This document shows, one piece after another, positions 15,927-57,679 of a stretch of 57,965 bases of DNA. Below the pieces are notes generated by a model. The model saw only the letters and a list, made by a program, of their open reading frames with translations. It was not told where the DNA came from and searched no databases. The DNA is from Candidatus Peribacteria bacterium (GTDB taxonomy: Bacteria; Patescibacteriota; Gracilibacteria; BD1-5; UBA2023), in NCBI GenBank assembly GCA_040383945.1, contig JBEICN010000002.1, forward strand, positions 1-57,965. The letters are read 5' to 3'. The position numbers and the translations under genes are program-made. Positions within the stretch are counted from its first letter, which is position 1. Every line of letters begins with the position of its first letter.

Positions 15927-17069
15927 GATTTTGGTGATAAAAACTATCACGATGATGAGGGCGATAAATAGAAGGACTTTCCCGATTTTATCGAGAAAAA
16001 CTGCAGAAATTCCAAAAAATAAAGCAATGGAGTATACAAAATTGCGAATGAAAGCGTCAGACATGCCGATCGCTTTGAGGCGATAGTGTAAATGATGGAT
16101 TCGATCTCACTTCAGCGGATTTTTCTTATTTGAAATGCGGGCAAAAATAACATAAATTGCGTCCACCAGATATACTCAAAGCGCCGTAGCGACGGTAGCC
16201 ACTTTTCCACCGACCAGTATGGCAAGAGATGCTATCATAAAAGCCAAAAACATAGTACCACTGTCTCCAAGAAGCATTTTTGGGGTAAGATTATAATACC
16301 ATGCCCAAATGAGCGAGGGAAGAAGTATCGAAAGAATACCAAAAACAAACATGGCATTTTGACGGAGCGCGGGAGTAGTATCGAGCAAATAAAAACGAAT
16401 GGTGGATATGAGTATTATAAAAAGTGTGATGGTCGTCAGTCAAATCGTAAGCCCAGGAACTCCATCACTCCAATTCACACTATTGAAAACGAGTACATAC
16501 CAAAAAATCGTAAAAAATAGAGGTATAAGAAATACTTCGTATCAAAAAAGCGAGACAGAAAAAAAATCTAAGTAGAGAATGCCTCAGAAAATATTGGATA
16601 TATAACTAATTTTTATACTGGTCAGCCCCACTATCAGTCCGACGAGAATCTGCATGGCCAATCGAACTTTTGGGGATATCGCAAATCCTGTTTTTCGAAT
16701 TTTTCAGAGGTCTTCCATGGTAAACTTCTGAGCGCTTTTTTCTGACCGATCGAACTTAAAAATAGTATCGAGGTCATCTACAAAACTCAACCCCGTAACC
16801 AATGCTCATAGTATGATCAATACTAAAAGCTTATCCGTTACCTCCATATACCCGAGCGCTATGCAAATCACGCAAACTGCTACAAAATTCAAGTATAGCA
16901 GCAATCCAAATCCAAAAGGCACCGGATCTCGATCATGTCCATATGGGCCAGGATTATCGAGAAGTCAGAATTTTCGAAACCACTTTCCTCCGAGGAAAAA
17001 CGAATAATAACTGACGATTGTTGAAAGCATTACTATCCCCAGAAATGTAATTGGATTTGCCAAAACCAT
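15903..17069 (-). CDS. glycosyltransferase family 4 (WecA/MraY-like phospho-sugar transferase); 3' boundary unresolved
   Basis: ATG 17067-17069. Polytopic membrane protein. Motifs: VNWSDGVPGL, LLGDSGTMFLAFM, HHLHYRL. There is no TAA/TAG before the prepilin domain; I checked this triplet by triplet over 15891-16178. Confidence 0.75.
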
Positions 17070-24085: not shown

Positions 24086-24161
24086 GCCACTTTAGCTCAG
24101 CTGGTAGAGCAACGGTCTTGTAAACCGTAGGTCGTCGGTTCGAATCCGACAAGTGGCTCCA
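24086..24161 (+). tRNA. tRNA-Thr (anticodon UGU), CCA encoded
   Basis: Cloverleaf by hand: acceptor GCCACTT/AAGTGGC, D arm GCTC..GAGC, anticodon stem ACGGT/ACCGT with loop CTTGTAA, T arm GTCGG-TTCGAAT-CCGAC. Confidence 0.9.
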
Positions 24162-24229
24162 GTAATATCAACGAGCAGGTAGCTTCGATTTGGAATACTA
24201 TATTCTAGTCGTGGCTTCTCTGTCTTTAT

Positions 24230-24314
24230 GGGTCGGTTCCAGAGCGGTCAAATGGGGAGGACTGTAAATCCTTTGGCTTCGCCTTCGTAGGTTCGAATCC
24301 TACCCGGCCCACCA
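24230..24314 (+). tRNA. tRNA-Tyr (anticodon GUA), long variable arm, CCA encoded
   Basis: Acceptor GGGTCGG/CCGGCCC, anticodon loop CTGTAAA, T arm GTAGG-TTCGAAT-CCTAC. Confidence 0.9.
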
Positions 24315-24366
24315 TTACATATCAAAAGTCGTATAGACAAGAAGTAATATTTGAAGAAAAACACTC

Positions 24367-24450
24367 GCCCGGATGGTGGAATGGTAGACACGACGGTCTT
24401 AGAAGCCGTTGCCGCGAGGTGTGAGAGTTCAAGTCTCTCTTCGGGCACCA
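24367..24450 (+). tRNA. tRNA-Leu (anticodon UAG), long variable arm, CCA encoded
   Basis: Acceptor GCCCGGA/TTCGGGC, anticodon stem ACGGT/GCCGT with loop CTTAGAA, T arm GAGAG-TTCAAGT-CTCTC. Confidence 0.9.
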
Positions 24451-24558: not shown

Positions 24559-24777
24559 ATGAAAAAGGATATCCATCCAAATACCTATAAAATTAAGGTA
24601 AGCTGTTCTTGCTGACACAGCTTTGAAACTCTCAGCACTATCAAGGGAGGAGAGCTCAAAGTGGAAACATGCCAGAACTGTCACCCATTCTACACTGGGG
24701 AAAAACGACTTCTTAAGACTTCTAGCGTCGACAAGTTTTACGCACGACAGAAGAAAGCGGAAAAGCTCCAAAAATAA
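24559..24777 (+). CDS. rpmE: 50S ribosomal protein L31 (zinc-binding C+ form)
   Basis: [27 protein letters not shown]...[10 protein letters not shown]. The TGA at 24613-24615 sits on the conserved Gly after CxC. Ends in TAA. Confidence 0.9.
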
Positions 24778-24838: not shown

Positions 24839-25837
24839 TTACGGCGTAGGTTGCGCCCCAGATGCCAGAAAAAAGTTAAATATAATATAGCTCGCAACGA
24901 GAAGAAGCACTCCAATAACCACATATTTCACGATATTTTTTGCCTTTTTCATTTTCTCGTCATCTCCACCAGAAGTCAAAACCAAAAACCCAGAATACAG
25001 TATGAGAATAACAATCACCAAAGCCAAAAACCCATTGATATAGTTCACTATATCCGTAAATATGGTGATCGTTTTGGAAATATTCGGATCTTCGATTTTA
25101 CAAATATTTACCAAAAGTACTCGTTCACACTTTGCTTCGCCATAAATAGACTTAATGAGCAGACCTGGCACCTTCAATAGAAAAAACCCCAGAATCGCGT
25201 AAATGATGGTTTTTTTACCACTCTTGGCCTTTTCTTCGTCTCCGCCAGCAGTTACGATCTTATAAAATGCCAGAAATGCCATCGCAAGAAATGCAAAAGA
25301 CGCCAAAATTTCTAAGAGATGTACAAACGGGTAGAGAATTTTATCTGAGAAATTCAAAGCGAGATTACCATCTATATTTTTGTCATACAAAAGGTCTACC
25401 ACCACAAAGGCTGATTGCATGACCACTATTCCGAGGGTGGTCCAGATGATAGTTGTTTTCCATTTTTTTATGTCTTCTTCTCACCCGGCACTAAAAAGAA
25501 TTCTGAGGGCAGAAATGATGAGGTAAATGATGGCAAATCCAAATATGACATTCTTAAGATCTCTGGCGATACGAATAAACAAATAATACGCCCCTCGCTC
25601 TCCCGTTTCTTGGTAAGAAAAAAACCTAAACCCTCCGTCAGCAGACTCTACTGAGGTTTTGAAATCCGCAGTATGGTCGGCTCTATTCTGTCCACTCTGC
25701 CTCCCGACACTCTGGAGGTCCAAATTGGTAGGTTGACCGCTCGAATCTACTTCTACCGCAGCAAACGCAAACGGCACCACCAGACATGTGGTCATGAAGA
25801 TAGAAAGCAGTATAAGAACTTGAGAAAATTTTTTCAT
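24839..25837 (-). CDS. secreted/membrane protein built from three tandem T4SS-pilin-like (TrbC/VirB2-type) helical hairpins
   Basis: Signal peptide MKKFSQVLILLSIFMTTCLVVPFAFA. Three repeats of a TM helix, an (S/T)(A/S)GG(D/E)(D/E)(D/E)(K/I)xKxxK motif, then a second TM helix: ILFSAGGEEDIKKWKTTIIW, KIVTAGGDEEKAKSGKKTIIY, LVLTSGGDDEKMKKAKNIVKY. Track ORFs 25481 and 24839 join over TGA. Confidence 0.6.
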
Positions 25838-25882
25838 AGGTGCATTGTAATCTAGGGCTCGCAAAGCGCAACCTTGACCTGC

Positions 25883-28795
25883 TTAATTGGTGGTAATTCC
25901 AAGTCGAGCCTCTATTTCCATATCGACATATTCTTTCTTTCGTCCATACATTTTCCGTGAATACTCCTTGATAAGCTTAGCGAGTTCGAGGTTCTTAAAG
26001 GTGTTATCCCAAATCGTTTTGAGGTCAAAAGGTCGAGTGGTGGCATTGTCGATATTCAATTTGCAATACGTAGTAAAATTTGCAATTCCGATAATATCTT
26101 GTTGAGAAAGTAGCGGCGAATATTCTTTTTCTAAGTATTCGGCATCATCCGCACCGACCTTAAAACTCATAATAGTACCAGCATTTCCAAATACCGCGTC
26201 TTTGATGGATGGTTTGCCGTCTTTATTATTGTTGCCTCCAATTTGAGCGATAAATTGATGCGCCATGATAAGGGCTAGATGGTACTTGCGGGCCTCGGAA
26301 AGAATTTCTCCAAAAGTATCTGTTGCAAAATTTTGAAACTCATCCACATAGAGAAAAAAGTCTTTTCTTTGGTCTTCTGGGGTATCGGCACGGCTCATGG
26401 CCGCCATATTGATTTTTGAGACAAATATCAAACCGAGAAGCTGGGCGTTGAGATCTCCGATCATTCCTTTGGAAAGATTCACCATCAATACTTTCTGATC
26501 ATCCATAACGCGGCGAAGATTGAAGGCGGATTTTGGCTGACCGATAATGTTACGAATCGTGGTATTGGTAACGAACGGTCCAAATTTTGAGCTGAAATAC
26601 GGGATCATTTCTTGCTTTTCTCGATCGCCAGTGTTTGCATATTCATGGTCCCAAAAGGCTTTTACTACAGGATTTTTTACCTTTGACACCTTGTACTTCA
26701 TAAACGCATCGTCAACGAACAGTCGTGGCACATCGATCAAAGTACCCCCTTCGTCATCATCGTCCATAAGCGTAAGACAACCGTTTCGGAAATAGTGCTG
26801 TATACGCGGCCCAAATATCTCCTCATTAAATATCTTAATGAAAATAGAGGTGGCATCCAGCGCTGCTCGATCTTTCTCTACGGCTCGAAGTGCTGGATCT
26901 GTTGCGATAATCTCGAGCATGTTCAGCCCCATTGGGCGTTCAAAGTCTCCAGGATTGAATATGACAATATCTTTGACTCGCTCTTTCGGAGTAAATGCAA
27001 TAATATCTTCTACCAGGTCACCATGAGGATCGATAACCGCAAGTCCGTCACCATTCCAGAGGTCTTGACGAGCAAGGTAGGAGAGAAATACTGACTTTCC
27101 TCCTCATGATTTTCCAATGATATAATGGTGTCTTCCTCGGTCTTTTCGAGAAAAATATACGGGAGTTTTCACATTACGATATTCGTTCCAGCCCATAAGC
27201 ACGCCGTCTGTATACAAGGGAAATCCTGCAAGTTTACGTGGTACATTAATCTCTACCGGCTGTTTTCCTGGATCTATGGTTTTTCCCTTGTTATCTCCAT
27301 CCTGATGGACTGGATAGGCCGTTCCATCAACACCATAAAAACTTCTTTGTTCATCGCGGACCAAGACTTTGTTCTCATCAACCTGCAAAAGCGTTCCATC
27401 TTGAGTAAAGACTTTGCCCGAAGGATCTCGTTTGTAATCTGAAAGCACCAACGGGTTTTTGAGAGTCTTAAGATTGTGGGGTGGTGCGAGCATTTTATAA
27501 TCCAACCACTTGATAATGGGAGATTTGTTGTAGTTGATATCAGGAAAATGGTACAAAGTGGAAAGTTCATCTACTGAAAAAACTGACTTGGATTGTAAAA
27601 ATCCAATCATGCGAAAGCGGTAGGCAAAATAACGGATTGGCGTAAAGATGAATGCGAGCAAATCCTCCCACTGTGGATTATCAAGCTTATTGTTGTACTC
27701 ATCAGTATACATAGACATGGCGCCAACCACTGACTCTAGGGCATTTTTGGTACTTTCTTGATCTTCTGAAGAAACGAGCAGTCGAACCGAAACCAAGAAC
27801 GCTGGCTGCCCCGCAGACTCTCCAACTGCCTTGTGGGACTCTTGTTCCGCTTGGTTGAATATTTTGTAAGAGTCTCACGAACTCGCACCAGGAGCACTGG
27901 TGCCATCCTCTTTCCCCGTGCTAAAAAAATCAACGAGCCAAATCAAAAATGCAAACGGCGCCTTGATGGCTTCCCAAAGAAAGTTTGCTTTGTACCCCTT
28001 GGTGTACTCACCTTTTGCTACTTTACTCGCCGCAGTTTTAGCATGGCGATTCCAGGCGCTTCATCGTGGCTTGATAACAAACTGAAGTGCGGCGTTATCA
28101 AACTTTTTCAAGGTACCAAAATTGTTCGTCAAAGTAGAAAGCGGATCATCCTCAAAATACTTGTATGTTTTAATTGGGAAAATATCATCATTAATTTTGC
28201 CAATAGAAGAAGCTCTCAGTGTATAATTATCTGGTTTGATATCAGGAAACTCGGAGGCGGGTATTTCTTTTACTTCAGCATCGGGGTAGTTGGAAGTAAT
28301 CTGCTGTGAGACCAAGTGCACATAATCACGGTACGTCACTACAAAAAATGAAAGCTGCCCCTTGTTATAGACCAACTCCATGGATATTTTGGCGTGATCA
28401 AATATAAAATCGCGAACGCTATCCCAGAAGGTAATATTCGAAATTTTGATAATTGATTTATAGAAAATGGACATAATTCCCATTTTTTCCTTAAAATCCT
28501 TTTTCGTCTCTTTTTCTTTGTCTAATTTGGAATCGGCTCGCGGTAGTGTAATTTGCATGTATACCAATCGACGGGCATTGTAAATTTCATACATGATTCG
28601 CATGAGCTTCAAGAGCAAATATCCCAGGAATATGAGGAGCAGGATTAGCACGATCTTTTCCGAAAGGAACAACAGAAGATCGCCTACTCCGAGTCAAGTG
28701 TCGGGAGTGGGTGAAGCGCTTGGGGTAGTTGTGGGCCTATTTGAGACGCCGGAAATACCGGCAGCCTCAGCTGTTGCTATAAATTGATGTATCAT
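25883..28795 (-). CDS. membrane-anchored VirD4/TraG-superfamily (FtsK/HerA-like) ATPase, paralog A (970 aa)
   Basis: Track ORFs 28061, 27104 and 25883 are in one frame. N-terminal TM helix. Walker A IIGKS-G-GGKS (TGA 27104-27106), AVIDPHGDL, Walker B FFLYVDEFQNF, and a coupling-protein-like KYHLALIMAHQFIAQ. Starts at ATG 28793-28795 and ends in TAA at 25883-25885. Confidence 0.8.
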
Positions 28796-28915
28796 ATTTT
28801 TTTGATATGCTACCAGTTCCGGACACTATGGGCAACTTTTGTGGACATTTTTCGTAACTTTTTCCTTTACGATTATCCAGGTGGTGGTATGGTTATGACC
28901 TAACCCCATTAATAT

Positions 28916-30409
28916 ATGAGACTTTTGCGCTCCATGGTGCTTCAGGGAATATTTGGAATTCCCATAGATATAGAAATAGATACCCAGCCAGGAATACCCT
29001 GTTTTACCATTGTCGGCCTGTGAGATGCCTCAATCCAAGAAAGCCGGGAACGCATTCGTTCTGCTATAAAAAATTCAAAATGTAGCTTCCCCTTGCGTCG
29101 GATCACTATCAATTTGGCCCCGGCACACATCAAAAAAACAGGAAGTCACTTTGATCTCGCCATCGCGCTTGGGCTCACGATAGATGAAGATTCAAACCTG
29201 GAGACAAAAAAACGATTAGAATCTACACTTATACTATGAGAGCTGGCGCTCGATGGCAAACTGCGCCCTCTTGTGGGAGCACTCCCGTTTATTGTATCAG
29301 CAAAAAAACAAGGCATACAAAAGGTCATGCTACCGCGAGAAAATATGCCCGAAGTTTTGCGGATTCCTGATATCGAAATATTACCCGTGGAAAGTTTGCT
29401 GGAGGGTATTGAGTATTTCGAAAAAGGAGAAATTCGTTCGTATGAGGCGGTGACAGCTCCAGAGTCAAATGCTGTGGTTTCTGTAAAATTTGAATCAATC
29501 ATTGGACAAGAATCAGTAAAACGCGGCCTTATTATTGCGGCAAGCTGAGGACACAATGTGCTCCTTGAATGACCCCCGGGCTCTGGCAAAAGCATGCTTT
29601 GTAGTGCACTTCAGTGAATCCTTCCAGATTTACAGAGTGACGAAGAATTAGAAGTTTCTCAGATCTATTCCATACTCGGCCTCGGCCAGCAAATACGATC
29701 AACTCTGCGCCCATTCCGCCATGTACACCACACCGCGAGTATAGCGAGCATTATATGATGATGAAAACACTGCCGGCCGTGAGAAATTAGTCTTGCGCAT
29801 CATGGGGTGTTATTTATGGATGAAATACTGGAGTTTGATCGATCTGCCATAGAATCCTTGCGAGAACCTCTAGAATCAAGAGAAATACGCATTTCACGAG
29901 CATATGGCACCTACGCATATCCAGCATCGTTTATGTTGGTGGGAGCTATGAATCCTTGCCCGTGTGGATATCTTTGAGATACCATCCAGGCCTGCAAAGA
30001 TACCGCAAGTGAGATTTCAAAATATCGTGGAAAGCTTTCCTGACCGATATTGGATCGTATCGATCTATTTTTGCAAGTACCTCGCCCCCGCTTGGAAGAA
30101 ATAAAAAAACAGAATTCTTCGAATGCACTCACCACCGAATGCGCCAAACAAAAAGTATCGGAAGCGTCTCAAATAGCCATGCAGAGGCAAGGAAAGCTCA
30201 ACGCCAACCTTCGCCCCCATGAATTGGATAAGCTGGAAATTGAAGAGGAGGCACATCAACTCCTGCTTCGTGCCATTGAACAACTCTCACTCTCGCTACG
30301 AGCGTACCATCGACTCTTGCGAGTGAGTCGGACCATTGCAGATTTAGAAAATCATAAAAAAATCGCTCCTGCCCATGTGGCAGAGGCGATGTGATATCGA
30401 CAAAATTAG
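28916..30409 (+). CDS. comM: Mg-chelatase-like ATPase ComM/YifB
   Basis: [35 protein letters not shown], Walker [38 protein letters not shown] (three consecutive TGA codons at 29756-29764), and the zinc-finger-like NPCPCGY. Ends in TAG at 30407-30409. Confidence 0.9.
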
Positions 30410-31455
30410 CTCTTTTTTAACTGATACATATTTCGCCCAACTCGTTCTATGTATTTTCGGTTTTGTAGATTCATATAGATGGTACTCGTTTTTACTTGAC
30501 GAACCTTGAGCACCTTTGTAATGATATCCTCAGTAGATAGGGGGAGTTTTGCCTTGTTGAAAACATCTATGATGACGTCAAGGACGGTTCCTGGTTTGTA
30601 GCCCCACTCCTTAAGAACATAGATTCATCGTCAAATCAATACAAACTCATTATTTCGTATGAGCTCATTATGAATAGTAGCCACCTTCACCGGCTCTTTA
30701 AAATGCTCAGCGATAGCGTTGGTCATATCAACAAAATGAGTAGGCTCTTTTTTCTTTTTCAAAATATAAATTGCCTTGTCTTTGAGCGTAGAAGGGTTCA
30801 GAATCTTCCACTTCTCAAGTCCTACAAATTTTTCTTCACCCTTTACTATATCCAAGAATACATCTAAGGCAGAGTCCACGAGTAAGGTGTCAATTTTTCA
30901 GAATTGTGCAAAGAGGTTGATTTTTATCATCTCATACAGCACGGCATTTTCTATAATATCTCCGCGCTTTTTGAGAATCTTCAAAGCTTCCTTGTGAATC
31001 TCGGCAATCACACGCTTGTTTACCTCAGGAAGAGTGAAATATGTATGAGTTCAGAGTTGTGGCTTTGATTTTTGAATGTTAAAATCTGACTGTAGCACAA
31101 TTTCCACAATTCCATCGTTAATATCCTCCGATCTCAGACCCAGCTCACTAATTACATTTGAGACAAGCCTGTCGCGAGTAAGAAGGCCTCCATGCTCTCG
31201 CAAAATTTTACCTCCATAAGTTTGAATCTCTAAAAGTCTTGAAGATTTAACAATTCGTCCAATTTTTCGGATTCATACATCTTCGATTTGTCGAACTCTT
31301 TCTCGGGTAATGCCGTAGTCATCTCCAATAGATTGCAAGGTCTCTCGCTCTCAAGAAAGGCCAATACGACGAGTAATCACGGATTTTTCTTTTTCGGTGA
31401 GACCCTCCAAGACTGCTAGAAAACCGGAATGTACTTCGCTAGATACGAGGGCCAT
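30406..31455 (-). CDS. sigma-70 region-4 HTH protein with a C-terminal HARE-HTH-like domain
   Basis: LTEKEKSVITRRIGLS-G-ERETLQSIGDDYGITRERVRQIEDV-G-IRKI is a region-4 signature. The tail ...PTHFVDMTNAIAEHF...IHNELIRNNEFVLI-G-R.. looks like HARE-HTH. Same-frame joining. Ends in TAA at 30406-30408. Confidence 0.6.
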
Positions 31456-31541
31456 AGAGGGAAAAATAAAATAACTTATACATCTATATATGGTTAATCG
31501 AACAAAAGTCAAGAAAGTTGAAAACTTCTGTAAAATCTTCC

Positions 31542-32033
31542 CTAGATAGGGAGTGTCATGTTTGTTTTGTCATTGCTCTTCTCCAAAATAGCACGATACT
31601 CTTCGAATTGAGCGTCAGTAGTAGGATTATTTTCTATATAGAGAGAAGAAAGCGCTTCTTTTTTTTGCTCTCTGTACGCCAATACCCCTCAAAAAAGGAG
31701 CAGTATAGAGCCAAAAATAGAAAATATCGGCGCTTCATAAAACACAATATCTTTGGTAAACGCAGAAAGTGATCTCAAGAAACTCAATCACATTATGAGT
31801 ATGGCCGTTTGGAAAATTCCAAAAAAAATCATGACGACCGGATCAGAAACTCGAACTCAAAGTTTAAATTTTAACACTTCCTTGGTGGTATTGGAAAATA
31901 TAAGAATCAGCGAACCGATGATGCTCAAAGAAAGAAGCACTCCCGCTCCTCCGAGAAACCTGGAAAACACAAAGTATTTTTCTACTCCGTCGATTGCAAA
32001 CCATGGAAACAAACAACTCCCCAAGACAAACAT
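31542..32033 (-). CDS. hypothetical membrane protein (163 aa)
   Basis: ATG 32031-32033. Four hydrophobic helices. Three in-frame TGA codons. Ends in TAG at 31542-31544. It becomes visible only under table 25. Confidence 0.45.
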
Positions 32034-32459
32034 TTGTCAAAAAAAAGCGATTCTTGAGGAAATCTTTAAGTGTATAAAATTAAAGGAAAGTCCCGATGCT
32101 ATTTTTAAAAGGCGAAGCCTAATTTTTCGGTACGATGTGGCAGTAGAAAGATTCATATTTGAGGGAATGTATACTGAATTATGGTGAATAGTAAATGTAG
32201 GGAATATTGACTTTGAGAAATTCTGTCGTTATATGGGTATATGTCAATACGAAAACCTGAGGACAATCTTTGGTTCCATGTATACCAACTCGTAGTTGGA
32301 TTTTTTTCGGTTATACGAAACATGTTACTTATGATTGTTGACAGGATACTTCGCAAAAAAACCAGCCGGAGAGTTGAAGCAAATCATCTCCTTTCGAGTC
32401 TACATTTTCTGGCGTATCAATTTCCAAAATCCTTTTGGAAAAAACCTACCGGAATAGGA

Positions 32460-33755
32460 ATGGGGAGAGGGATTGGCACTATCATGCTCTATTTTTTGGG
32501 GAAACGTGTATTTTTTTTGGAAAAAACGGGTTCTAGCGAAGATTTGGCATCAACCACGACTGACACGAAGGGGGCTCCATCTATCCATAATTCTGGATTC
32601 ACACTCATTGAGATGATGATCTCCATAACTCTATTTTCAGGCATACTTATCGGAGCATTTTCAGCATTTGGAAATATCACTCAGTTGAAAAACAAGGTCA
32701 TTGCTGATGTTGATGTATATGAGCAATTGTATGTAGCTGTGGAAAGCCTAAATACCTTGATCAAAGATGGATGAGATATCGATTATGAAGAATATTTCAA
32801 CCGATCCCTCGTCGGCACAACGCTTTCTGGCTGACACTATGTGACATCAAGCTGATTTGGAAATTTTGGCGCTGGATGAGCCATATCTGCGACTCCGAAT
32901 TTTGGCGATGATGTCTATTATTGTCGAAGTATTGTTGGATCTAGTGTTACCAATGCAGGATGTGCCTTGACGGGCGCACTCAATACCAGTGGGAATTCTC
33001 AAGCAGGAAGCATGCAAAGATATGGTCAGTATCAGCTCCAATTTACTGACTTTAATAGCCCAGGGAACAACGATACTCAGCTTTGTACCAACAAAGTTCC
33101 TTCTATACCAGGGATGCCACTGGGCGATGAAGATTGTGATGGGAACATTACCGGAGACTCCGACGATGAGTCGCTCGGACTTTGACCGGTAGCCTTTCCT
33201 CAAAATACAGCAATGCCCGAATTATATCTCATCAAAAAAAACAGCTCCAATCCGACGCGAATTTTGATCCGACTGAAGATAGAAAGAGATCCAGACGCTC
33301 CAGCAACAGCCCATTGTAATACTCAGGCTGGAACTGGTACGGGTTGTATTGGAAGACTTCAGATATTACGACTGATCGGAAGAGATCTTGGGGCAAGCCA
33401 TGGGTCGGGTAGTAGAAGTTACAACGGAAGAATTGACACTTGGGAATGTCAGCCCGATTTCCCATGTGTCACCATGCCAAATCAAACACTCGATGGTGTA
33501 CAGCGATATTTGCCAACTGGGAATGCTTCAGAATGGGTTGATATTTTTAGCAAGGATATTTCGGTAAATTCGGCAAATTTCTTTCTCAGTCCTAATATCG
33601 ATTATACCCTTGCGTGGAAGGGAGGATCTGATATGCTCGCAAACTCCATGCTTCGCATGCAGTTACGACTTGGATATAGTTGGAAAAAAAGGAAGCTGGT
33701 ACAGTTTAGGGTGCCAGAAATCGACGTCACCACCACTATCAACCTTAGAAAATAA
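32460..33755 (+). CDS. large Cys-rich type IV pilin-like protein (start uncertain)
   Basis: Prepilin motif NSG|FTLIEMMISITLFSGILIGAF. Track ORFs 32241, 32967 and 33213 are in one frame. Possible starts: 32241, 32460, 32484, or a TTG nearer the cleavage site. Four Cys pairs and an acidic DEDCDGNITGDSDDE loop. Ends in TAA at 33753-33755. Confidence 0.7.
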
Positions 33756-33759
33756 TACT

Positions 33760-34803
33760 ATGGAACCTTGCTGCAAAAATCATTCTGGCTCTGCTCTGAT
33801 AGTCACTCTGCTACTAATAGGGGTACTCTCGCTTGTCATGATACTGCTTATGGAAAAAATAATTCCGACCAGTCAAGCAATTCGAGGCATAGAAAACAGC
33901 ACTATTTGACTCTATCACAGCGCCTCCGCTATTGAGAAAGCATTTGCCAGTATGAACTATAGACAACCCGGACTCGCTGCGGGCACAGGGAATATTACGG
34001 TAAGTAGTGCTCAAGAGGAGGGGAAATATAATGTTTCTCAATCCAGCACAATTGTCCCAATTCCCGGGAAAGGAACGAGCGAATATGACTCAAACTGGAA
34101 TCGTATAAATACAGGAAATCCTGTTCAACTACGAATATCATCTCAAAGCTTGCTGACAAGTTTGGAAGATATGGTATTTGATCTTCGTATGCCAAAAATA
34201 GGAACTAGTGACTCACGTGCTGGATATACCGCAAGCACAAGATATTTCACCAGTAACGCTACCACCCCCGTGATTAATGTCATACTCAGCAATTCCAGCA
34301 TATCACTCATTTCAGACTATGGAACAAGCTGCTCCACATCGGGAGCCCAGAATAATGGACTTACCGCTGACCGAGTAAATGACCCAGATACTATAGCCCT
34401 TGGGAAGCTTTGCATGAAAAACACGAGCGTAATAGGATCAAGCCGAACCCTGGAAGAAATGCTTGATTTGACAGAAAATACAAACTTTTGCTCAGGCTGA
34501 TGCACGCTAAAGTTCAGCTTGGTAAATAAGCTAGAAAATGCTCAAAATCAAGAAGTTCCATATCTAGAGTACCGTATAAGAAAACAAATTTCACTTGGTT
34601 CAACGAACTGAGAAAATTGTTTTTTGAAGTATCCACCTATTACCACGGCCTGTAGCGTGGATATGAACCTTGCCGGGCAACTTGGGCTACCAATAACAAC
34701 GGTTGATTCAGAATGAATAGCATACGGCTATAGGCGGACTAACACAAGAGATCTACAACAGCTTACCACAAACGAAGCGTTCGACTTCGCCGTATTCAAA
34801 TAG
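33760..34803 (+). CDS. PilX/GspK-like minor pilin candidate
   Basis: The N-terminus MEPCCKNHSGSALIVTLLLIGVLSLVMILL resembles the PilX_N / GspK hydrophobic segment. Same-frame ORFs 33610 and 33952 plus a tail joined over TGA. Ends in TAG at 34801-34803. Confidence 0.5.
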
Positions 34804-34804
34804 C

Positions 34805-35788
34805 ATGAAAACCCTACTAATAGACAAGGCCGACGAGGGGCAGCGTCTCGATCGATACTTGAGAAAGTATCTCCCTAGCGCCCCGCTCTCTGCTATTTAC
34901 AAACTTGCCCGAACCGGAAAAATCAAAATAAACGGAAAGCGAGTTATTAACGAGTACCGTGTCGAAGAAGGGGATCTTATGGACCTGCACGTATCTGACG
35001 ATATGTTGATGGCATATCAAAAAACATCCGCGACTCCCGTGCTTCCCACTCAGACAAAAGCTCGTCTTTCTGATTGGATTTTATACGAAGATGCATCGAT
35101 ACTTGCCATCAACAAGCCCTCCAAAATAAATGTCCATCCTGGCGACCATAAGAGCAATGAGGTGTCGATTATACAAATGGCACATGATTACTTTGAGGGG
35201 AAGTATAGTAGCCCTATGTTTTCCCCATCCCTCGTACATCGTATCGACCGAAACACAACGGGAGTTCTCTTAATTGCCAAAGATCGACACTGACTAAATT
35301 TTTTGCTTGATGAACTTCAGTCACATCGCATGCGGAAGAAATATCTCGCACTGGTTACGGGAAAATTGCAAGGCAACCAAACAATCCGCAGTCCACTACT
35401 GCGAATTGAAAACGCCAAAAATGAATCAAAAGTACGAGTCGATCCAAATGGACAAAAGGCGATAACTCACTATAAGTCCCTCTTTGCATCAGACAAAATA
35501 AGTCTGCTTGAGGTAGAGCTAGAAACCGGAAGAATGCACCAAATCAGAGTGCATCTCAGCTCTATCTGACACCCGATATTGGGAGACTCCGTATACGGAA
35601 AACGAGAAAAAAACCGAGAGCTCCAGATCGCTTGAGAGTCCTTTCGACAAATGCTCCACGCCAGAGAATTAGCCTTTGTTCATCCTGTCACTCGAAAATT
35701 GACCACTATAATAGCACCGATACCCGAAGATATGAGGATAGCTCTAGAGTACTACTTTCCTTTACTCGAAGCGTTTGACGCCTTGTAG
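34805..35788 (+). CDS. rluD: RluA-family 23S rRNA pseudouridine synthase (RluC/RluD-like)
   Basis: S4 domain (RLDRYLRKYL...KLARTGKIKINGKRV). Catalytic HRIDRNTTGVLLIAK. GRMHQIRVHLSSI-G-HPILGDSVYG. Ends in TAG at 35786-35788. Confidence 0.85.
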
Positions 35789-36765
35789 ATAACCTGTCCT
35801 ATGGGATTCATAGTATCTCTGAGGTATTCGCGTATCATGAGATATCGATCCTCGATGAGCACCATGAGAATATGAGAAGCGTACGTTTGCTCAAAATCTC
35901 GATATGCATCAAATGCATCATCAAATACTCTTTGGGTATGGGCAATTTCGTTTGTGGCTCGACTGGAAACACTTCCCAGTGAAGCCGCCAAAGACTCGCT
36001 GCTTGGAAATCTCTCGTACGGAGCATTGGGATCAGCCTGACGCTGTGCTCGGAGCTTATCCTCGTTTTGAATCACTCTAGACAATTGATTTTTGACATTG
36101 TCGTCAACATATTTGAGATAATGTCTATAATTACAGTACTCCATGGTCGCCGAGCGTATAAGAGATCGCTTCATACTGAGCTCAGCGCCATCGCCCTCCT
36201 CTTTTGATACATTTTTACATCCACGCTGTTTCATCTGTGATTCTATTTGCTGAGTTGCTCGCTCCAAATTGCGCACCATATTGGTGCCTTCTGGATGAAA
36301 TTCTTTCACGAGCCTCGTGTGAATTTTGTACTTGGTGTTGAGAACTGCACACGCATAAAGTGCGTTCATTCGCTCTTTATATACGAGAGAAGCCTTTTCG
36401 ATTTGGGAAGCGAGTGGGAGATTCTGGCTCTCTAGCGCAATAATTCCTTGGATCTCTAGTGGATCCGCCTTTATGGCATCAATACCTTCTCTAAACTTTT
36501 TATCTGCGTTGGCATCGTATATATCGGGATAAAAATATTCCGGAAAAACAATAAGATCCTTTGGGATTTCCTGCTGCGAGCCTATCGGTGAGTTCCAAGG
36601 AGCGGCGCTCTCTCACTTAGCGTAGCAGAGAGTCTTCACAGACTCTGTATAGCTTTGATGCGTATAAAGTCCAGGGGCATCAACTGCCCAAAGGGGCAAT
36701 GAAATTCCGCACAAGCTCAAGGCAAAGCAAAGACGCAGTGGTAAAAAAGGGCCTACATGACTCAT
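35752..36765 (-). CDS. secreted ORFan protein (337 aa) coupled to ATPase B
   Basis: ATG 36763-36765 overlaps the stop of ATPase B by 13 nt. Signal peptide MSHVGPFLPLRLCFALSLCGISLPLWA. Helical body. Ends in TAG at 35752-35754. Confidence 0.55.
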
Positions 36766-39149
36766 ATTCTAAAATTAATTTCCTTCTCTATAAATTCTCG
36801 CTCCCGACCGTACTTCAAACGAGAAATCTCACGGTAGGCTTTTGCAAGCTTGGGGTTTCCTGCTTCAAGATACGGATTAGTTGGAGTTAAGCTAAATGCT
36901 GTCGAAGGTTGTCCATCAATGGCAATTTTTGTCACTCATTTAAATTTATCCATATTCACCAGATCCATATCTGAAAATGCCGGACTAAACTGCTTGGCGA
37001 GAAATTCTGCATCCTCTGGGCCAACCTTATACGCCATCATGGACCCCACATTACCAAATATCGCATCTTTAAGATTTACATTGGACTTCGTAAGTGCATC
37101 TGACTTCTGGAGTTGCCCCAGATACTGATGGGCCACAATAAGTCACAATCGATACTTTCTGGCCTCTGAAAGTATCGATTCGATAGACTCGGTGATGTAA
37201 TTTTGAAATTCGTCAATATACAAGAAAAAATCGTGTCGATCTTGTCGATCAATGCTCTGTCGTCGCATAGCAGCCATTTGGATTTTTGATACCAGTATCA
37301 GTCCCAAAAGATTGGAATTAAAATCTCATAAAATCCCTTTGGAAAGATTAATAAAGAGTATCTTTGATGTCTGCATACAGTCATACACATCAAACGAGCT
37401 TTTGGTCTGACCGATGATGTTACGCATCAGTTTATTAGTAATAAATCCTCCGAACTTTGCTGCAAAATATGGGATAATTTCACCCTTTTCTCTTTCTCAC
37501 ATTTTCGCATATGTTTGGTCCCACCAACCACGAACGACAGGATCTTTGAGGGTTCTTCTGCGCTCCTTCTGAAATTCATCATCCGTAAAAAGTCGAAGTA
37601 TGTCCGTAAGGGCACAGCCACCGGGATAATCCATCAAAGTGAGCACTCCATTGCGGAAATAGTCTTGTATTCGAGGACCAAATATTTCGGAACCAAAAAG
37701 CTTGATCATAATGTTGAGCGCGTCTTGCGCCACTATTTGCTTCTCGTCGTCAGATGCTGCCTCGAGGATATTAATTCCAAGAGGTCGCGCCATATCTGCA
37801 GGATCAAAGTAGACAATATCGTCAGACCGAGACTTTGGAACAAACGGAAGAAGATCTTTGGCAAGATCCCCGTGAGGATCGATAACCGCAAGTCATCGTC
37901 ACGAACGAATATCCTGCCGTGCCATCGATTGGAGAATAGACGACTTCCCCGTACCAGTCTGCCCCACCACATAAAAATGACGGAAGCGGTCTTCATTCTT
38001 AAGAAAAATATCCTTTGTGACTCCTTGATAGGTATTAGTTCCGAGTAGCAACCCTTCAGTTGGTATATTGATTGGAGCCTTTACGATTTTGAAGTTTTGC
38101 CAGCGAATTTCTGCTATACGATTGTATTTGGAATGAGGAAAATGAAAGAGGGACGCGAGCTCCTCGGTCGTAAAAATGGTGGAATGCGAAGAGTTGGAGG
38201 ATCTCGCGAGATACTGTGTCAAAAATTGATCAAACGCACGAATTCGAGTAAGTTTGAGACTGTTATATCCGGGAGCACCGTACTGGGCATATGCAGCGGC
38301 AATGTTCGAGACGATGGACTCTATAGAATTTTCTTGGACCCCTGCAGCAAGCACCCGTATCGAAGTCCGAAACCCCGTCTTCTTCGCTTTTTCACGTATT
38401 CACTCCTTCTCAGTGAGGTGATCGTCAGAGTCGTGGGAATCCTTTGAATCATGATCGTCTACTCCACCAAAAAGTGTTCCAAAAAGACTTCCAATTCCGA
38501 ACCCATGGTGTGACTTTCCGAGCGACTTTTCAAACTTAAGTGCTTTGGATTGCCAAGTATCATGCATGGGAGATATGGCGATTTGAACTACCGCACTCTC
38601 AGCAGAAGAAAGCTTTGCCAGGGCTCAGAATACGGCATTCATGGGATCAGACTCGAGCTTTTGGTAGGACTTGATCGGCTCAAAATATGATTTTTTGGTT
38701 ATGAGCTGTCACCCTCTCACAACATTGCGCCCCTCAAATATGTTGAGCTCATCAACTGCTTCAACAAGCGCATCGGAGTACATGCTCGTAATGAGCTTCT
38801 CTATCGATCCTCGGATACTTGCCGGGGTCACGACTATCAAAGAAATTTCTCACGCATGAGACACTACCTCAAGCGACAGACTCGTATTGCCAAAAAAACG
38901 ATTGAGAAATCCGGCCTCACTCAAAGATCGAAAGCCCACCAGCAACTGCTCCATAAGACTGATCTGCTCCTTGAAATCGCGTGTAGTCTCTCGCTTCTCA
39001 TCACTATCACTATCTTTGCGTGGCAAAAGCACTCTCAAAAAAACAATGTCCAGCATTTGATCAAATCGACGTCGCCGATAATACCACGCAAGCCATATGG
39101 CAAAAACGATACAAATTCCGAGGGGAATTGCTACAAGGATTCCATTCAT
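36753..39149 (-). CDS. membrane-anchored VirD4/TraG-superfamily ATPase, paralog B (798 aa)
   Basis: Track ORFs 38850, 37899, 37497 and 36936 are in one frame. N-terminal TM helix. Walker A VVGQTGTGKSS, RS-G-R-G-LAVIDPHGDL, Walker B FFLYIDEFQNY, and KYRL-G-LIVAHQYLGQL. It is collinear with paralog A, including the N-terminal L(L)PR.DS...K/RE..DFKE motif. Confidence 0.8.
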
Positions 39150-39181
39150 GTATAGAGTATAGCAGACAACGCCCAAAACAC

Positions 39182-39219
39182 AAAAAATCCCCCGTCTCCG
39201 AAGAGATGAGGGATTTTTG
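39182..39219 (-). terminator. Rho-independent terminator after the S-layer gene
   Basis: GC-containing hairpin aaaaatccc...gggattttt. The minus-strand hairpin is followed by tttttt. It lies between TAG 39257 and the ATPase B start. Confidence 0.6.
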
Positions 39220-39256
39220 TATCAAGTAGATCAATTAGGTGAACCTAAGAGAAAAA

Positions 39257-42200
39257 CTAGAAGCTAAGAACCGCGCCAGCAACAGTGTAGCTATCAGAAG
39301 TATTGATAGTACCAGAAGCACCACCATTAGAATCTGTATAGCTGTATGAAACAGCATTAGTTCCAGAAGCCACACCTTGAACTCCTTCAAGAGAAGTACC
39401 GAAAGTGAGAGTTCCATTTGAAGGAGGAACGATACTAGAAGTATCAGCTCGAACCATAAATGTAACAGTTTGTCCAGCAGTAACAACGATAGCAGAAGCA
39501 AAAGTGAATGTAACATCACTTCCACTTACAGAACCAGTTGCGTAGTCAGTATTGTTGTATCGGAGTCGGTAGTTGGATCCAGATGCAGATGCATTACCAG
39601 AAAGGCGAACCTTAATAGCAGAAACTGAAACATCTCGAGTTCCTTCAGCCTTAATTGAGTAAGTCGCGATATCGTGATTGGTGCTTCCTACAACCTTTCC
39701 AGATGGAGTAGGCATAGTAGAAGCGAGAACAACCTTTGAATCTTGAACCAACATAGTAGCAGAAGGAGCAACAGTATTGGCAATAACATTAGAAGCAAGA
39801 GTAGAAAGATTTCCACCAGCAACTCCAGTATATTCAATAGCCGTAGGTGCAATTACCACTTCTCGACCCTTTTCGAGAGTTACAGAAGCAGTAGTGTCAG
39901 CTCGAACTGAGATTGACTTAGTACCTGCCTTAGGAATTACGAAGTTAAGACCCGTAAATTGAGCAGTGTTACCAACGAAGGTAGCAGTAGCTGAACCAAT
40001 TTGAGTTGAACCATCAAAAAGTTTTACATTAGTGAGGTTTCGTCCAAGATCAGTAACTCCAGTTAGAGTAGATCCTGTTCCAAGATTGAGTTTATCAAGT
40101 CGGATATCTTCATTGTTTGATGCTCGAACCTTGAATCAGAGAATTTCAACATTAGTCATTCCAGCAACAAGAATTTGCTTAGAAGGAGTAAGTGAATCAG
40201 CCTCAACGGTAAGAGTACCATTTGAAACGATTGAAACAGCTGAAGAAGATGCATTTGATGCAGGACCAGTTACGGAAACTGCAGTCTTAACACCTACAGC
40301 AGAAGTTCGACCAGATTCAAGAATTACCTGAAGTGATGTTGCAGTAGCAGCAGAAGTTACATCAGCGTAAACATCAATGGTAACCGTAGAGTTAGCTCCA
40401 ACATTGAGAGCACCTGCATTTACAGAGAAAGTGTTTCCTGTAGATTGTGGGTTAGCTACAGATGTGGCAATAGAGTTAACACCTACCTTAAGGGTAAGAT
40501 TGTTAATACCAGTCACACCTCCTGAAAGGGCTACTCCAACGGTAGTAACATTGAGATCATCAGCATTGGAAGCTTGAAGATTGAATGAACCAATCTTAGC
40601 GTTTGACTGTCCCTTAACGAGATTAGTCGTGCTGAATCCTCCATTTGCCGAAGCAGTAAGAGCAACATTTTCTACAGCAATAGTGTTTCCATTAGTACCT
40701 GTAAGAGTAAGTGTCTTGATTGAGTTGGACGAAATGAGCTTGTAAGAAGCGTCAATAAGTTCAGCTCGGTAACTATCTGAACTTGTAGCAGAAGTACCGA
40801 TAGAAGCTACGATAGCAACCTTAGCCGTAGCTCCAGCCTTGATGGTGAAGTAGGTGGAAAGGTAACCAGTATTTGCTCCAGACCCGTAGTTAGCTGCGTT
40901 AGCAGCATCCGTAGAGAATACTGTTTGTCCATCTACCGTAAGCTTAAGGGTTCCTCGGAGATTTGTAGTACCAGAAACTTTATTCACCTTGAAGTTAAGT
41001 TTTTGGAATTCCATATCCTCACCAGATGCCTTAACATCGAATGTTCCAAGAACTACATCATCAATACCAGGAGCAGCGCTCTGTGATCGTGAATCAGTAG
41101 CCTTAGCTACAGTAACTGTACCCTCTCGAACCTTGTACCAGTATTGGGTAGAAGGAAGAGAAGTAGCAAGAACGTAGTTTCCCGTAACCGCACCCTTAGC
41201 TACGATATCAAAATCATCTCGGATCTTTGCAGAGAAAGTTCGAGTTGAATTGTATTTACCAGTAGCTACTGAAGCCTTAACGGTGAAGAATCGGCTAGAA
41301 CCTTGAGGAATAGTGTAAGGAGCAGTAAATTGGAAATTTACATATCGTCCTACAGAAGCTGTTGCAGAAGCAAGAACATTTCCTTCTTGTGAAATAATTT
41401 GGAAAGTATCAAGGTCTCCGTCAGAAACAGAACCTTCTACGAACACATTAACTCCTTCAACAACGAGGTCTTCCTTAGAGTTCGTTTGCTCAACCTTGAA
41501 CTTTGCTACCTCAGTAGATTGTCCAATGTCGAGGGAAACTGCAGCACCCTCAGTTGAAGCACCACCTACTGCGATTGCAGTAACGTTGTATTGAACGAGA
41601 GCAGAAGAACCGTCAACTACAGAGTGAACTGCAGAAGAAACTGGAGCACCAGTAACAGTACCACCAGCAAGAACCTTAGAAAGAGTAAGACCTACGGTAC
41701 CAGAGTAAACTCCAGATCGTACATTGAGTGCGATAGTAACCGTCTTAGTTTCACCAGCCTTGATTTGAAGTGGAGTAGTTCCAAATGAAACGGTAGCCTT
41801 TCCATCAGAAGTGAGAGATTGAGCAACGTTTCCAAGTCGTGAACCACCTACCCAAGCTGAGATACCTGCAACATTAGTGTTGGAAAGGAGTCCAGATCGA
41901 GTAACTTCAACACCAGTAACCGTAGCATCCTTAGATCCAGCCTTGATGTCTACCACAAGAACCTTGTTGTAAGCAGAACCAGTTGCAAGGGTAGTTGCAG
42001 CAGGAGTAGCAGGATTTACAGAAACCATAACATCACCAGTAGCAACGGTGGTATCAGTACCAACGGTTACACCAGTATTTGTTGTAGGAGTTGTAGGAGT
42101 GGTAGTTCCAGTGTTAGTATCTGGAGTAACTGGAGGCTCAACCATATCAGTAGTGTCAAGCGCAAGAGCACCTGCAGCTACCTTGAATGCTTCACCACGA

Positions 42201-42748
42201 GTTGAGGTAGCATTTGGTCGGAATGAAGTACCAGACTTAATAAGCCCTTCTTCAACCGCAGCGTTAACGTAACCGTAAAGGTCACCCATAGACGCAGGAA
42301 CATCAGTGAAACCAGCAGAAACATCAGTAGGAGCTACTCCTCGGGCAGAGAGAAGCATCTTTACCATTTCGGCTCGAGTAACGAGATCCATTGGTCGGAA
42401 TTTTGCATTAGCTGATGAAACAATTTCAAGATCAGCTGCAGCTTCGATGTATCCACAAAGGTCACCCAAAGCAGAAGTTACATCAGAAAAGTAGTTTCCT
42501 GCACATTCAGCTGCTGATTCATCAGCGAGCTTAACTGCAATTTTTGCCATTTCAGCTCGAGTGATATTATCACCGAGTCGGTATCCGGCTTCGCTAGACT
42601 GAGTGTTAATAACACCAGCTTCAGCAAGGGCTTCAGCATTAACGGCAAACTCAGAAGCTGCGAGAGCGGTGAGCGATGAGCTCATTGCCGTTGCAACGAT
42701 TGCGAGTGCGCTAGTTGTTGAAGTTACCTTTTTAAAAAGATTACTCAT
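39257..42748 (-). CDS. S-layer-like surface protein: signal peptide, three SLH-type repeats, Thr/Pro linker, then tandem beta-sandwich-like repeats (1163 aa)
   Basis: MSNLFKKVTSTTSALAIVATAMSSSLTALA. SLH-like segments ..ITRAEMAKIAV.., ..VTRAEMVKMLL.., ..STRGEAFKVAA... Linker PPVTPDTNTGTTTPTTPTTNTG. Recurrent modules of the form xLGxFxVxAsxxEDhxhxxhxh. Track ORFs 40136 and 39257 join over TGA 40136-40138. Confidence 0.85.
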
Positions 42749-47786: not shown

Positions 47787-48407
47787 CTAGGCAGAACGCG
47801 CCAGAGCAATGATGTAGACTCTTTTGCAACCTTGTTTCACAAGCGAGTGTGCACAGGCTCGCAGTGTTGATCAAGTAGAGATAACATCGTCGACTAGGAT
47901 AACTTCTTCTGGAACTCTAAAAAATGGAAGAATTCCAAATGAAAAGTTTCGGCCCATTCGTTCATTTTTGGAAATTCAGGCTTGGTGCTGCCCACTCCAG
48001 AACCTATATAGACCACGAAATACGGGGATTCAGAACTCGTTATGGACAATATTAGACAAGCACTTTGACTGATTGAATCCCCGCTCATACCAACGATCTA
48101 CCCCAAGAGGAACATATGAAACCGCGGTATGTTTTGATACAACAGGAATGCTTCTTAGTGCCTTTCCAAAAGCTTGCTCTAAGGCTATTTTGGAATTCTC
48201 ATTTCCCTCATACTTCCATCTTTTCAAAATTTGAGATATATCTTGGTATTCAAAAAGTACCCAAACTGACACTACTTCCTTTGGCATTCCAACATCTTTA
48301 TACCAAGTCACAAAATTTTTTGGAGAAATAGGAAGTTCCGGAGGGGTTGGGGAGACTTTTGGTACATATCCAAAAATTTCTTGAATCAACAAAGAAAAAA
48401 TAGACAT
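47787..48407 (-). CDS. comF: ComF-family phosphoribosyltransferase-domain protein
   Basis: PRTase motif VILVDDVIST-G-STLRACAHSLV, and a ComF-like N-terminal region. Starts at ATG 48405-48407 and ends in TAG at 47787-47789. Confidence 0.75.
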
Positions 48408-57575: not shown

Positions 57576-57679
57576 AATTTGATCCAGAGAAACACTTAAA
57601 ATAGCACACGAAAATAAAAAAAGGAAGGAAAAGAAGATGAAATATTTTCCATTTCAAAATCCAGTGGACCCGCCTGCTT

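Follow-up and report, generated by a model that had tools for sequence, protein, structure and literature searches.

Two paralogous DUF8128-containing ATPases and a fused triple pilin are probable dispersed parts of a chromosomal type IV secretion system in Gracilibacteria

We analyzed a complete contig of 57,965 bp (JBEICN010000002.1, hereafter the window), which belongs to the chromosome of a Gracilibacteria/JAEDAM01-type patescibacterium using genetic code 25. The window carries two paralogous genes for membrane-anchored ATPases, ATPase A and ATPase B, and A is followed by a gene for a protein with three fused pilin hairpins. A and B are VirD4/TrwB-class coupling-protein-like ATPases within the FtsK/HerA/VirB4 superfamily. 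From gene order and protein comparisons, the window probably holds dispersed parts of a chromosomal, relaxase-less Gracilibacteria type IV secretion system (T4SS), in which A and B would be the coupling-protein-like components. This dispersed arrangement was deduced from related genomes because the VirB4 gene is missing from the window. A preliminary description of this DNA had proposed another model, in which each ATPase and its exported partner form a self-sufficient minimal machine; it is weighed below together with other alternatives.

Results

Genes of the two ATPases

With translation table 11, the open reading frames (ORFs) of both ATPase genes were broken into pieces of 200-350 amino acids (aa), and this way of calling ORFs was dropped because TGA fragments the genes. 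When TGA was read through, ORFs of at least 100 aa rose in sum from 13.6 k to 40.7 k residues, and the two genes became single ORFs of 970 aa (A) and 798 aa (B), exactly where the preliminary description had placed them. Four in-frame TGA codons are present in A and 11 in B, and TGA codons occupy glycines that are invariant across the paralogs (the Walker-A residue G564 in A, and G417/G419 in B). Therefore, TGA is read as glycine, which corresponds to code 25. This code is the usage of Gracilibacteria and Absconditabacteria. The suggestion of a source in the candidate phyla radiation thus held, the organism being a TGA-recoded Gracilibacteria-type bacterium. The features of the locus are presented in Table 1.

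Table 1. Features of the ATPase A to ATPase B region and its borders
Feature	Position	Strand	Evidence
tRNA-Thr/Tyr/Leu cluster	24086..24450	+	ARAGORN
rpmE	24559..24777	+	L31 sequence in translation
Triple VirB2-like T4SS pilin	24839..25837	-	332 aa; Pfam T4SS_pilin (PF18895) 7.6e-23, 3 stretches
ATPase A	25883..28795	-	970 aa; Pfam T4SS-DNA_transf, DUF87, TrwB_AAD_bind, TraG-D_C
comM (Mg-chelatase-like helicase)	28916..30409	+	Pfam Mg_chelatase 6.2e-83, ChlI, Mg_chelatase_C; divergent from A
Sigma70 region-4 and HARE-HTH protein	30406..31455	-	Pfam Sigma70_r4 1.2e-11, HARE-HTH 5e-5
Small polytopic membrane protein	31542..32156	-	About 4 hydrophobic segments; syntenic with sigma-like gene
Type IV pilus (not T4SS) prepilin-type protein, large, Cys-rich	32322..33755	+	N_methyl 3.2e-5; IV_pilin_GFxxxE 8.2e-5
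PilX-like candidate minor pilin	33760..34803	+	One N-terminal hydrophobic helix; no family match
RluD-like pseudouridine synthase, housekeeping	34805..35788	+	Homolog in locus L089 with PF00849 PseudoU_synth_2, matches at 3.2e-81
ORFanB, secreted Cys-containing all-helical protein	35752..36765	-	31 homologous clusters; AF2 model
ATPase B	36753..39149	-	798 aa; BLASTP paralog of A; Pfam T4SS-DNA_transf, DUF87
Weak terminator-like hairpin	39189..39204	-	6-bp stem, 3 GC pairs, T-run; consensus match only
SLH-domain surface-layer-like protein	39257..42748	-	Pfam SLH 8.3e-13; upstream of B

As had been claimed, A and B are collinear paralogs, a relationship visible only under the TGA-recoded code. 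By BLASTP, their ATPase parts share 48% identity over 456 aa (E 2e-142) and their N-domains 24% identity over about 400 aa (E 7e-28), the whole proteins being collinear. The motifs quoted for the pair were all present: both proteins contain the segment LPRxDS..E..DFKE, a Walker A motif, AVIDPHGDL, FFLY(V/I)DEFQN, KYxLxLIxAHQ and a basic tail. Each has one N-terminal hydrophobic transmembrane helix followed by a basic run. Within the ATPase family, GxxGxGKS and DEFQN are invariant. ATPase A consists of a Pro/Thr-rich N-tail, the transmembrane helix, a DUF8128 domain, an insert of about 70 aa and a T4CP-like (type IV coupling protein-like) ATPase domain, and B shows a shorter version of this layout. 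By the positive-inside rule, a basic run after the N-terminal helix points to an N-out/C-in topology, in which all the rest of A and of B would be cytoplasmic. An AlphaFold2 (AF2) model of a B ortholog with 96% identity (pLDDT 83, pTM 0.68, alignment of 52 sequences) presents a long transmembrane helix, an alpha/beta domain at about residues 35-335 and a RecA-like domain, in which an all-helical insert (residues 467-593) separates Walker A from Walker B. The conserved PRxDS..E..DFKE motif lies, in the AF2 model, in a disordered juxtamembrane loop.

Both ATPases have hundreds of homologs, whose precomputed Pfam annotations combine DUF8128 (PF26449) with T4CP/HerA families. Homologs of A (60-91% identical) carry PF26449 and PF02534, homologs of B (55-96% identical) carry DUF8128, and the named ones, from Gracilibacteria, are called 'type IV secretory system conjugative DNA transfer family protein' or 'DUF87 domain-containing protein'. 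The name DUF8128 is taken from these annotations, since the Pfam set used for scanning includes no DUF8128 model and the N-domain matched none of its entries. With a TGA-free DNA stretch of A as the query, the DUF8128 N-half had 467 representatives among 1.84 billion proteins. Distant full-length members of the family are collinear with B, suggesting that the B architecture is apparently ancestral and that the N-tail and the insert of about 70 aa would have been gained by A.

In the closest relative (L001), the identities were 88% for A, 94% for B, 93% for typA and 92% for the sigma-like protein, and 71% for comM, 64% for ORFanB and 62% for the pilin. In OY970170.1, the nearest complete genome, the identity of A is 81%. 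A and B appear to evolve at the pace of core housekeeping genes and the exported partners fast, as expected of surface-exposed proteins.

Assignment to an ATPase family

The Pfam model T4SS-DNA_transf (PF02534, cut-off 20.1) matched A with 40.0 bits (E 3e-10) and B with 28.6 bits (E 8.5e-7). Matches to DUF87 (3.1e-7 in B), TrwB_AAD_bind and TraG-D_C were weaker than this one; the PF10412 match spans the P-loop part of the profile only, and the DUF87 (HerA central) match covers about 70 residues around the P-loop. Among the other Pfam models, AAA_10 and FtsK_SpoIIIE were not matched by A or B, and HerA_C, like the NCBIfam model for HerA, stayed under its cut-off. The VirB4 model TIGR00929 reached 15.9 bits (E 0.0029) against a cut-off of 643, and CedD 34 bits against a cut-off of 600. 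More generally, the curated NCBIfam models (TraD, CD1115 VirD4-like, CedD, VirB4, HerA) aligned with the P-loop region only and 10-40-fold under cut-off. The profile searches that had been proposed as a check thus place both proteins in the VirD4/TraG superfamily, yet divergent from all curated families.

Searches of PDB sequences, with B or with the family profile, returned P-loop matches only, to TrwB, HerA and DotL, TrwB being the best. In Foldseek, the B-ortholog model matched TrwB (1e9s) with E 2e-13 and a TMt (template modelling score) of 0.63, HerA with E 2e-12, Cagbeta with E 5e-11, and full-length TrwK/VirB4 (7o42, 8rtd) with E 6e-16 over about 860-900 aligned columns and a TM of 0.30. 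When the A/B family was aligned by hhalign with the VirB4-like proteins of Gracilibacteria, only the P-loop was aligned, with 38% probability. The candidate identification of DUF8128 as the VirB4 N-terminal domain found no support at the sequence level, as hhalign aligned nothing beyond the P-loop. Overall, A and B are divergent members of the T4CP/VirB4/HerA radiation, nearest to coupling proteins. They resemble T4CPs (VirD4/TrwB/TraG/TraD; PF02534, PF10412, PF12696) in the TrwB-like P-loop fold, the N-terminal membrane anchor, a candidate counterpart of the helical insert, placed between Walker A and Walker B in the AF2 model, the PF02534 score above cut-off and, for A, the linkage to other T4SS genes. 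In contrast to T4CPs, they have no relaxase partner among the window proteins scanned, show a chromosomal, core-like conservation and form two fixed paralogs.

Genes downstream of ATPase A

The pilin gene lies 45 nt 3' of A, and the preliminary description of this partner as a triple T4SS pilin was confirmed. Its product matches T4SS_pilin (PF18895) in three repeats with 80.8 bits against a cut-off of 26.6, and the NCBIfam model Mbov_0395 pilin-like, from a mycoplasma integrative and conjugative element, with 2.5e-15. We observed a signal-peptide-like N-terminus and six transmembrane segments forming three hairpins, each with a GG(D/E)EE..KK loop. The triple-hairpin protein is probably a pilus subunit.

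To place these genes among relatives, we used an A-centred sample, obtained by scanning a genome collection and comprising 80 species-level loci with A orthologs 60-88% identical, and a B-centred sample of 17 loci. In these loci, code-25 ORFs were called and labelled by BLAST and HMMER. Downstream counts refer to the 76 loci in which the sequence extends 1 kb or more past A, and upstream counts (comM) to the 64 loci with enough upstream sequence. Two of the loci, L021 and L022, are the two ends of one contig (JAYWCE010000131.1) with identical gene order in the ORF map, which may be an artefact of the assembly or a long inverted duplication at the contig ends.

A T4SS gene was found directly downstream of the A ortholog in all 76 Gracilibacteria loci. 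The triple pilin stood alone after A in 36 of them, whereas in 38 A was followed by a membrane SpoIIE/PP2C-like protein and then a VirB4-like ATPase of about 650 aa. The two remaining loci (L011 and L073) present both, in the order pilin, radA, (rpmE), SpoIIE-like and VirB4-like, and anything else directly after A was found in none (0/76). In all, a pilin homolog adjoins A in 38/76 loci, the SpoIIE/VirB4 module taking its place in the other 38, and a VirB4-like ATPase is encoded 1.2-4.2 kb downstream of A on the same strand in 40/76. The SpoIIE-like protein matches Pfam SpoIIE with 2.8e-40 (for example L017, 12887-14095), and the VirB4-like ATPase matches P-loop_TraG with 1.2e-24 and AAA_10 with 6.5e-10.

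A gene for a membrane-anchored SpoIIE/PP2C-type phosphatase thus stands between those of the coupling-like and the VirB4-like ATPase in 38 loci within L017-L064. This phosphatase and the juxtamembrane PRxDS motif of the ATPases hint at a possible phospho-regulation.

A VirB4-like gene was not found in the 57,965-bp window. Just past the pilin gene, a tRNA cluster and rpmE lie in the opposite orientation (convergent), and at this tRNA/rpmE point L073 and L011 run on to the SpoIIE-VirB4 genes. Therefore, this point of the window presumably marks a rearrangement. The VirB4-like motor and the SpoIIE-type phosphatase are presumably encoded elsewhere in the source genome, split off by this rearrangement. 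The absence of VirB4 had been read as a trait of the system; it fits a rearrangement beside the tRNA cluster and rpmE instead.

Genes around ATPase B

The gene that we call ORFanB overlaps the end of B by 13 nt, and its product has a hydrophobic N-terminal segment, as stated in the preliminary description. The label of orphan did not hold, since the protein has 31 homologous clusters, all from relatives, with conserved cysteines and, in the family alignment, an invariant C-terminal motif NPIGQVIY.A.N. Neither ORFanB nor any of its 31 clusters had a Pfam match, and ORFanB had no NCBIfam match either. Its AF2 model is a long helical bundle (pLDDT 75), for which Foldseek returned nothing below E 0.2 and generic helical bundles only. 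An identification as a VirB5-like or other known protein was rejected, as no family and no significant fold was matched.

Partner adjacency in related genomes, proposed earlier as a check, was also observed for B: a homolog of ORFanB lies directly downstream in 12/17 B-loci. As a universal partner of B, ORFanB was rejected, being absent after B in L082, L083, L085, L087 and L088. Directly upstream of B, three of the 17 loci (L084, L087 and L088) encode a protein strongly homologous to the triple pilin (E ~1e-68). L088 is located on the contig of L034, where A is followed by the SpoIIE/VirB4 genes and no pilin; L089 is located on the contig of L058, where A carries the pilin and B none. Across the sampled genomes, the pilin gene adjoins either A or B, which suggests that both ATPases act with the triple pilin.

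Large SpvB/TcdB/RHS-type toxin-like genes were observed within a few kb of B and ORFanB in L084 (11195-14334) and L090 (1-443). Upstream of B in the window, the S-layer gene of the preliminary description does encode an SLH domain; in most other genomes an SLH gene is absent from this position. The terminator said to separate the two genes is reduced to the weak hairpin of Table 1.

Block between the ATPase genes

The genes between A and B had been described as a block bracketed by one system. In 50 of 64 loci, comM lies upstream of the A ortholog in divergent orientation. The distance between A and B is large in other genomes, where a block of the sigma-like, membrane ORF, type IV pilin and RluD genes moves independently of them and the sigma-like gene stays together with the genes of the membrane ORF and of the type IV pilin. 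We regard the comM/regulator/type IV pilus block as a case of conserved chromosomal synteny, and its genes are unlikely to belong to the machine; the picture of one bracketing system was not supported. Of the identities given to these genes, comM, the Sigma70_r4/HARE-HTH protein and the N_methyl pilin were recovered. The PilX-like call was not, as the protein had no family match, and the RluD-like gene had been omitted. The PilX-like candidate gene is kept beside the RluD-like and pilin genes in relatives. The small membrane protein had no Pfam or NCBIfam match.

The sigma-like protein, whose identity in L001 is on par with that of typA, gave a weak match to RNA polymerase delta and may serve the whole lineage as a core transcription factor instead of acting as a local regulator.

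Remaining genes of the contig

No relaxase, integrase or replication family was matched among the window proteins scanned, the remaining ORFs being judged housekeeping by eye only, and VirB4 was likewise unmatched among the scanned proteins, as the preliminary description had noted. Its view that this is a chromosomal locus and not a conventional conjugative element agrees with the absence of any mobile-element gene among those seen. The scanned genes are of ordinary chromosomal kinds, among them those for a sortase, a ComF-like protein and ComEC, and frr, mfd, holA, trmD, typA, fmt, uvrA, murB and glyA were identified by eye from the translations. Three competence-related genes are thus present on the contig: comM, a ComF-like phosphoribosyltransferase (47787-48407) and ComEC (56220-57758). 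We also observed an MraY-like glycosyltransferase-4 membrane protein (15231-17069, minus strand) with a C-terminal extension opening with a prepilin-type N_methyl motif, an unusual fusion; a large secreted protein of 879 aa (8872-11511, minus strand); and a coiled-coil protein of 446 aa with C-terminal transmembrane helices (51020-52360, minus strand). The last two had no Pfam match.

Discussion

Relation to published T4SSs of Patescibacteria

Quinonero-Coronel et al. (2025, PMC12102498) have described a monophyletic, MPF-FATA-related clade of VirB4 that spans Patescibacteria; VirB2-like PF18895 pilins accompany it, frequently as arrays, and relaxases are nearly absent. In the same study, 5,713 VirD4-type T4CP homologues were counted in 2,918 Patescibacteria genomes, only 148 of them near virB4, and exaptation was raised as possible; the T4SS components of Gracilibacteria were dispersed, and T4SS loci of class ABY1 also held comF, recG and radA (PMC12102498). 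Both the T4SS and the pilin array belonging to it are essential in S. epibionticum (Wang et al., 2023, PMC10633639; PMC12857230), and neither a coupling protein nor a relaxase could be recognised within the T4SS cluster (Wang et al., 2023, PMC10633639). Loss of comEC leaves the viability of this species unaffected, and T4SS essentiality is independent of ComEC (PMC12857230). Feeding on host RNA has been proposed in a 2026 preprint, with T4SS-like tubes located where the host is contacted.

The window genes are members of the set catalogued in 2025, that of coupling-protein homologues away from virB4 (PMC12102498). As in the published systems, we found a chromosomal, relaxase-less setting and a VirB2-like PF18895 pilin in a monoderm, which are the criteria of PMC12102498; the published systems also have about two T4CP homologues per genome, mostly away from virB4, and dispersed genes in Gracilibacteria (PMC12102498, PMC10633639). 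The published pilins form arrays, whereas the pilin described here is one fused three-hairpin polypeptide, and in about half of the sampled Gracilibacteria species A adjoins virB4 via the SpoIIE-like gene. DUF8128 was not mentioned in the literature searched, and it is absent, with the A/B paralogy, from PMC12102498 and PMC10633639. The same literature held nothing on a fixed, slowly evolving A/B pair, a three-hairpin pilin fusion, a pilin alternating between A and B or the A-SpoIIE-VirB4 gene order, which is frequent and operon-like in Gracilibacteria. Overall, these comparisons of genes and genomes describe what appears to be a divergent form of coupling protein in the T4SS already known from Patescibacteria, and not a new system or a new class of machine.

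Weighing of the alternatives

Several observations weigh against the coupling-protein-like role in a dispersed T4SS. Canonical T4CPs are anchored by two transmembrane helices directly before the ATPase domain and have no DUF8128, whereas A and B have one helix and then about 300 aa of cytoplasmic DUF8128 between anchor and ATPase. Canonical T4CPs also seldom adjoin pilin genes, and the A/B family directly adjoins one. The curated T4CP equivalogs of NCBIfam (TraD, CD1115 VirD4-like) gave at best 32-40 bits against cut-offs of 250-647, a 10-20-fold shortfall, and the best Foldseek E-values were those of full-length VirB4, which leaves room for a VirB4-like assembly role. For B, linkage to a T4SS gene was limited to 3 of the 17 sampled loci. 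The window contains no VirB4, VirB3, VirB6 or VirB8, so that membership in one machine with VirB4 rests on the synteny of other genomes. Finally, a T4CP homologue was not essential in S. epibionticum although the T4SS was (PMC12102498).

Some of these points lead to another role, in which A and B would not couple substrates but, as VirB4-like ATPases, pull the triple pilin out of the membrane and power the polymerisation of the pilus. VirB4/TrwK indeed share with A and B an N-terminal domain followed by a C-terminal P-loop ATPase, the best Foldseek matches run over the whole length with columns reaching beyond the ATPase domain, and the attachment of the pilin gene to A or B by lineage is an unusual pairing for coupling proteins. 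We nevertheless consider this role unlikely. Outside the P-loop there is no sequence-profile similarity to VirB4; in Pfam, the matches are to T4SS-DNA_transf, TrwB_AAD_bind and TraG-D_C and not to VirB4 families such as AAA_10 and CagE_TrbE_VirB, and TIGR00929 stays far under its cut-off; and the TM of 0.30 to VirB4 compares with a TMt of 0.63 to TrwB. Moreover, VirB4 has no transmembrane helix of its own, unlike A and B, and the same lineages have a bona fide VirB4-like gene besides those of the two ATPases. The minimal filament or transfer machine of the preliminary description, working without VirB4/VirB6-type partners, would explain why no VirB genes were found in the 58-kb window and agrees with the conserved adjacency of ATPases and partners. 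Against it stand the VirB4-like ATPase shortly downstream of A in 40/76 loci, the genomes of the same class given as VirB4-positive in PMC12102498 Table S1, and the partners themselves, which are not paralogous, the pilin apparently serving either ATPase. This machine is very unlikely, and the claim of self-sufficiency was not supported.

T4SS-related ATPases of archaeal Ced and Helicobacter ComB act in DNA import and so have roles beyond conjugative export, although Helicobacter ComB is not known to have a coupling protein. A and/or B might similarly be nucleic-acid translocases of competence or recombination, importing host DNA/RNA or exporting DNA with ComM and RadA, instead of generic effector-coupling proteins. 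The comM/radA synteny of A would fit nucleic-acid handling: comM is divergent from A in most loci, and in L011 and L073 radA separates the pilin gene from the SpoIIE-VirB4 module. The ComF-like and ComEC genes of the window, the similar gene content of ABY1 T4SS loci (PMC12102498), the weak P-loop matches to the archaeal DNA-translocating ATPase CedD and the 2026 preprint point the same way. However, synteny within a class can be inherited without function, uvrA and rluD being syntenic too; the CedD match is restricted to the P-loop and far under cut-off; the T4SS of S. epibionticum is essential independently of ComEC, without which the species is viable (PMC12857230); and no DNA-binding domain was identified. 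Taken together, we judge such translocases highly improbable. A remnant of an integrated conjugative or other mobile element, which the Pfam and NCBIfam names of conjugative transfer proteins could evoke, was rejected on context and conservation and has almost no likelihood. The scanned flanking genes are housekeeping genes, with no integrase, relaxase or replication gene among them, the GC content is even across the locus and the window, and A orthologs occur in all 80 sampled species-level genomes, the orthologs being 60-96% identical and in conserved chromosomal synteny.

Proposed function and implications

Under the dispersed T4SS that we favour, A and B would form hexamers associated with the membrane, at the base of a channel or pilus that is powered by VirB4 and contacts the host cell, and there they could recruit or translocate macromolecular substrates or help to handle pilin. 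The two paralogs might provide two substrate or assembly specificities and would share the same pilin, whose gene is attached to either by lineage, while ORFanB could be a lineage-restricted extracellular accessory. For the cargo, protein effectors would be the default expectation and nucleic acid a minority reading, kept in play because of the comM/radA synteny, the ABY1 parallel and the 2026 preprint on host RNA. In a rather improbable further reading, A and B would depart from classical coupling proteins and work in a T4SS for parasitic feeding, either as motors of nucleic-acid import or as translocases coupled to the pilin. In this picture, a fused-pilin tube would tap the host, A and B would draw host DNA/RNA into the epibiont and hand it to ComM/RadA-type helicases, and the membrane SpoIIE-type phosphatase would regulate the two ATPases via their juxtamembrane PRxDS motif.

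No T4SS before that of Patescibacteria had been shown to be essential to its own carrier bacterium, and the present result bears on the active question of the role of this essential system. 'Orphan' coupling-protein homologues of Gracilibacteria are now grouped with VirB4 and pilin genes. In the Gracilibacteria branch, the two paralogs evolve slowly and contain a domain that no studied coupling protein has, one fused triple pilin is tied genetically to either of them, and a membrane phosphatase of PP2C/SpoIIE type is encoded between the coupling-like and VirB4-like ATPases. These features raise the questions of what DUF8128 binds, whether A and B have separate substrates, whether the system is phospho-regulated and whether nucleic acid may be among its cargo.

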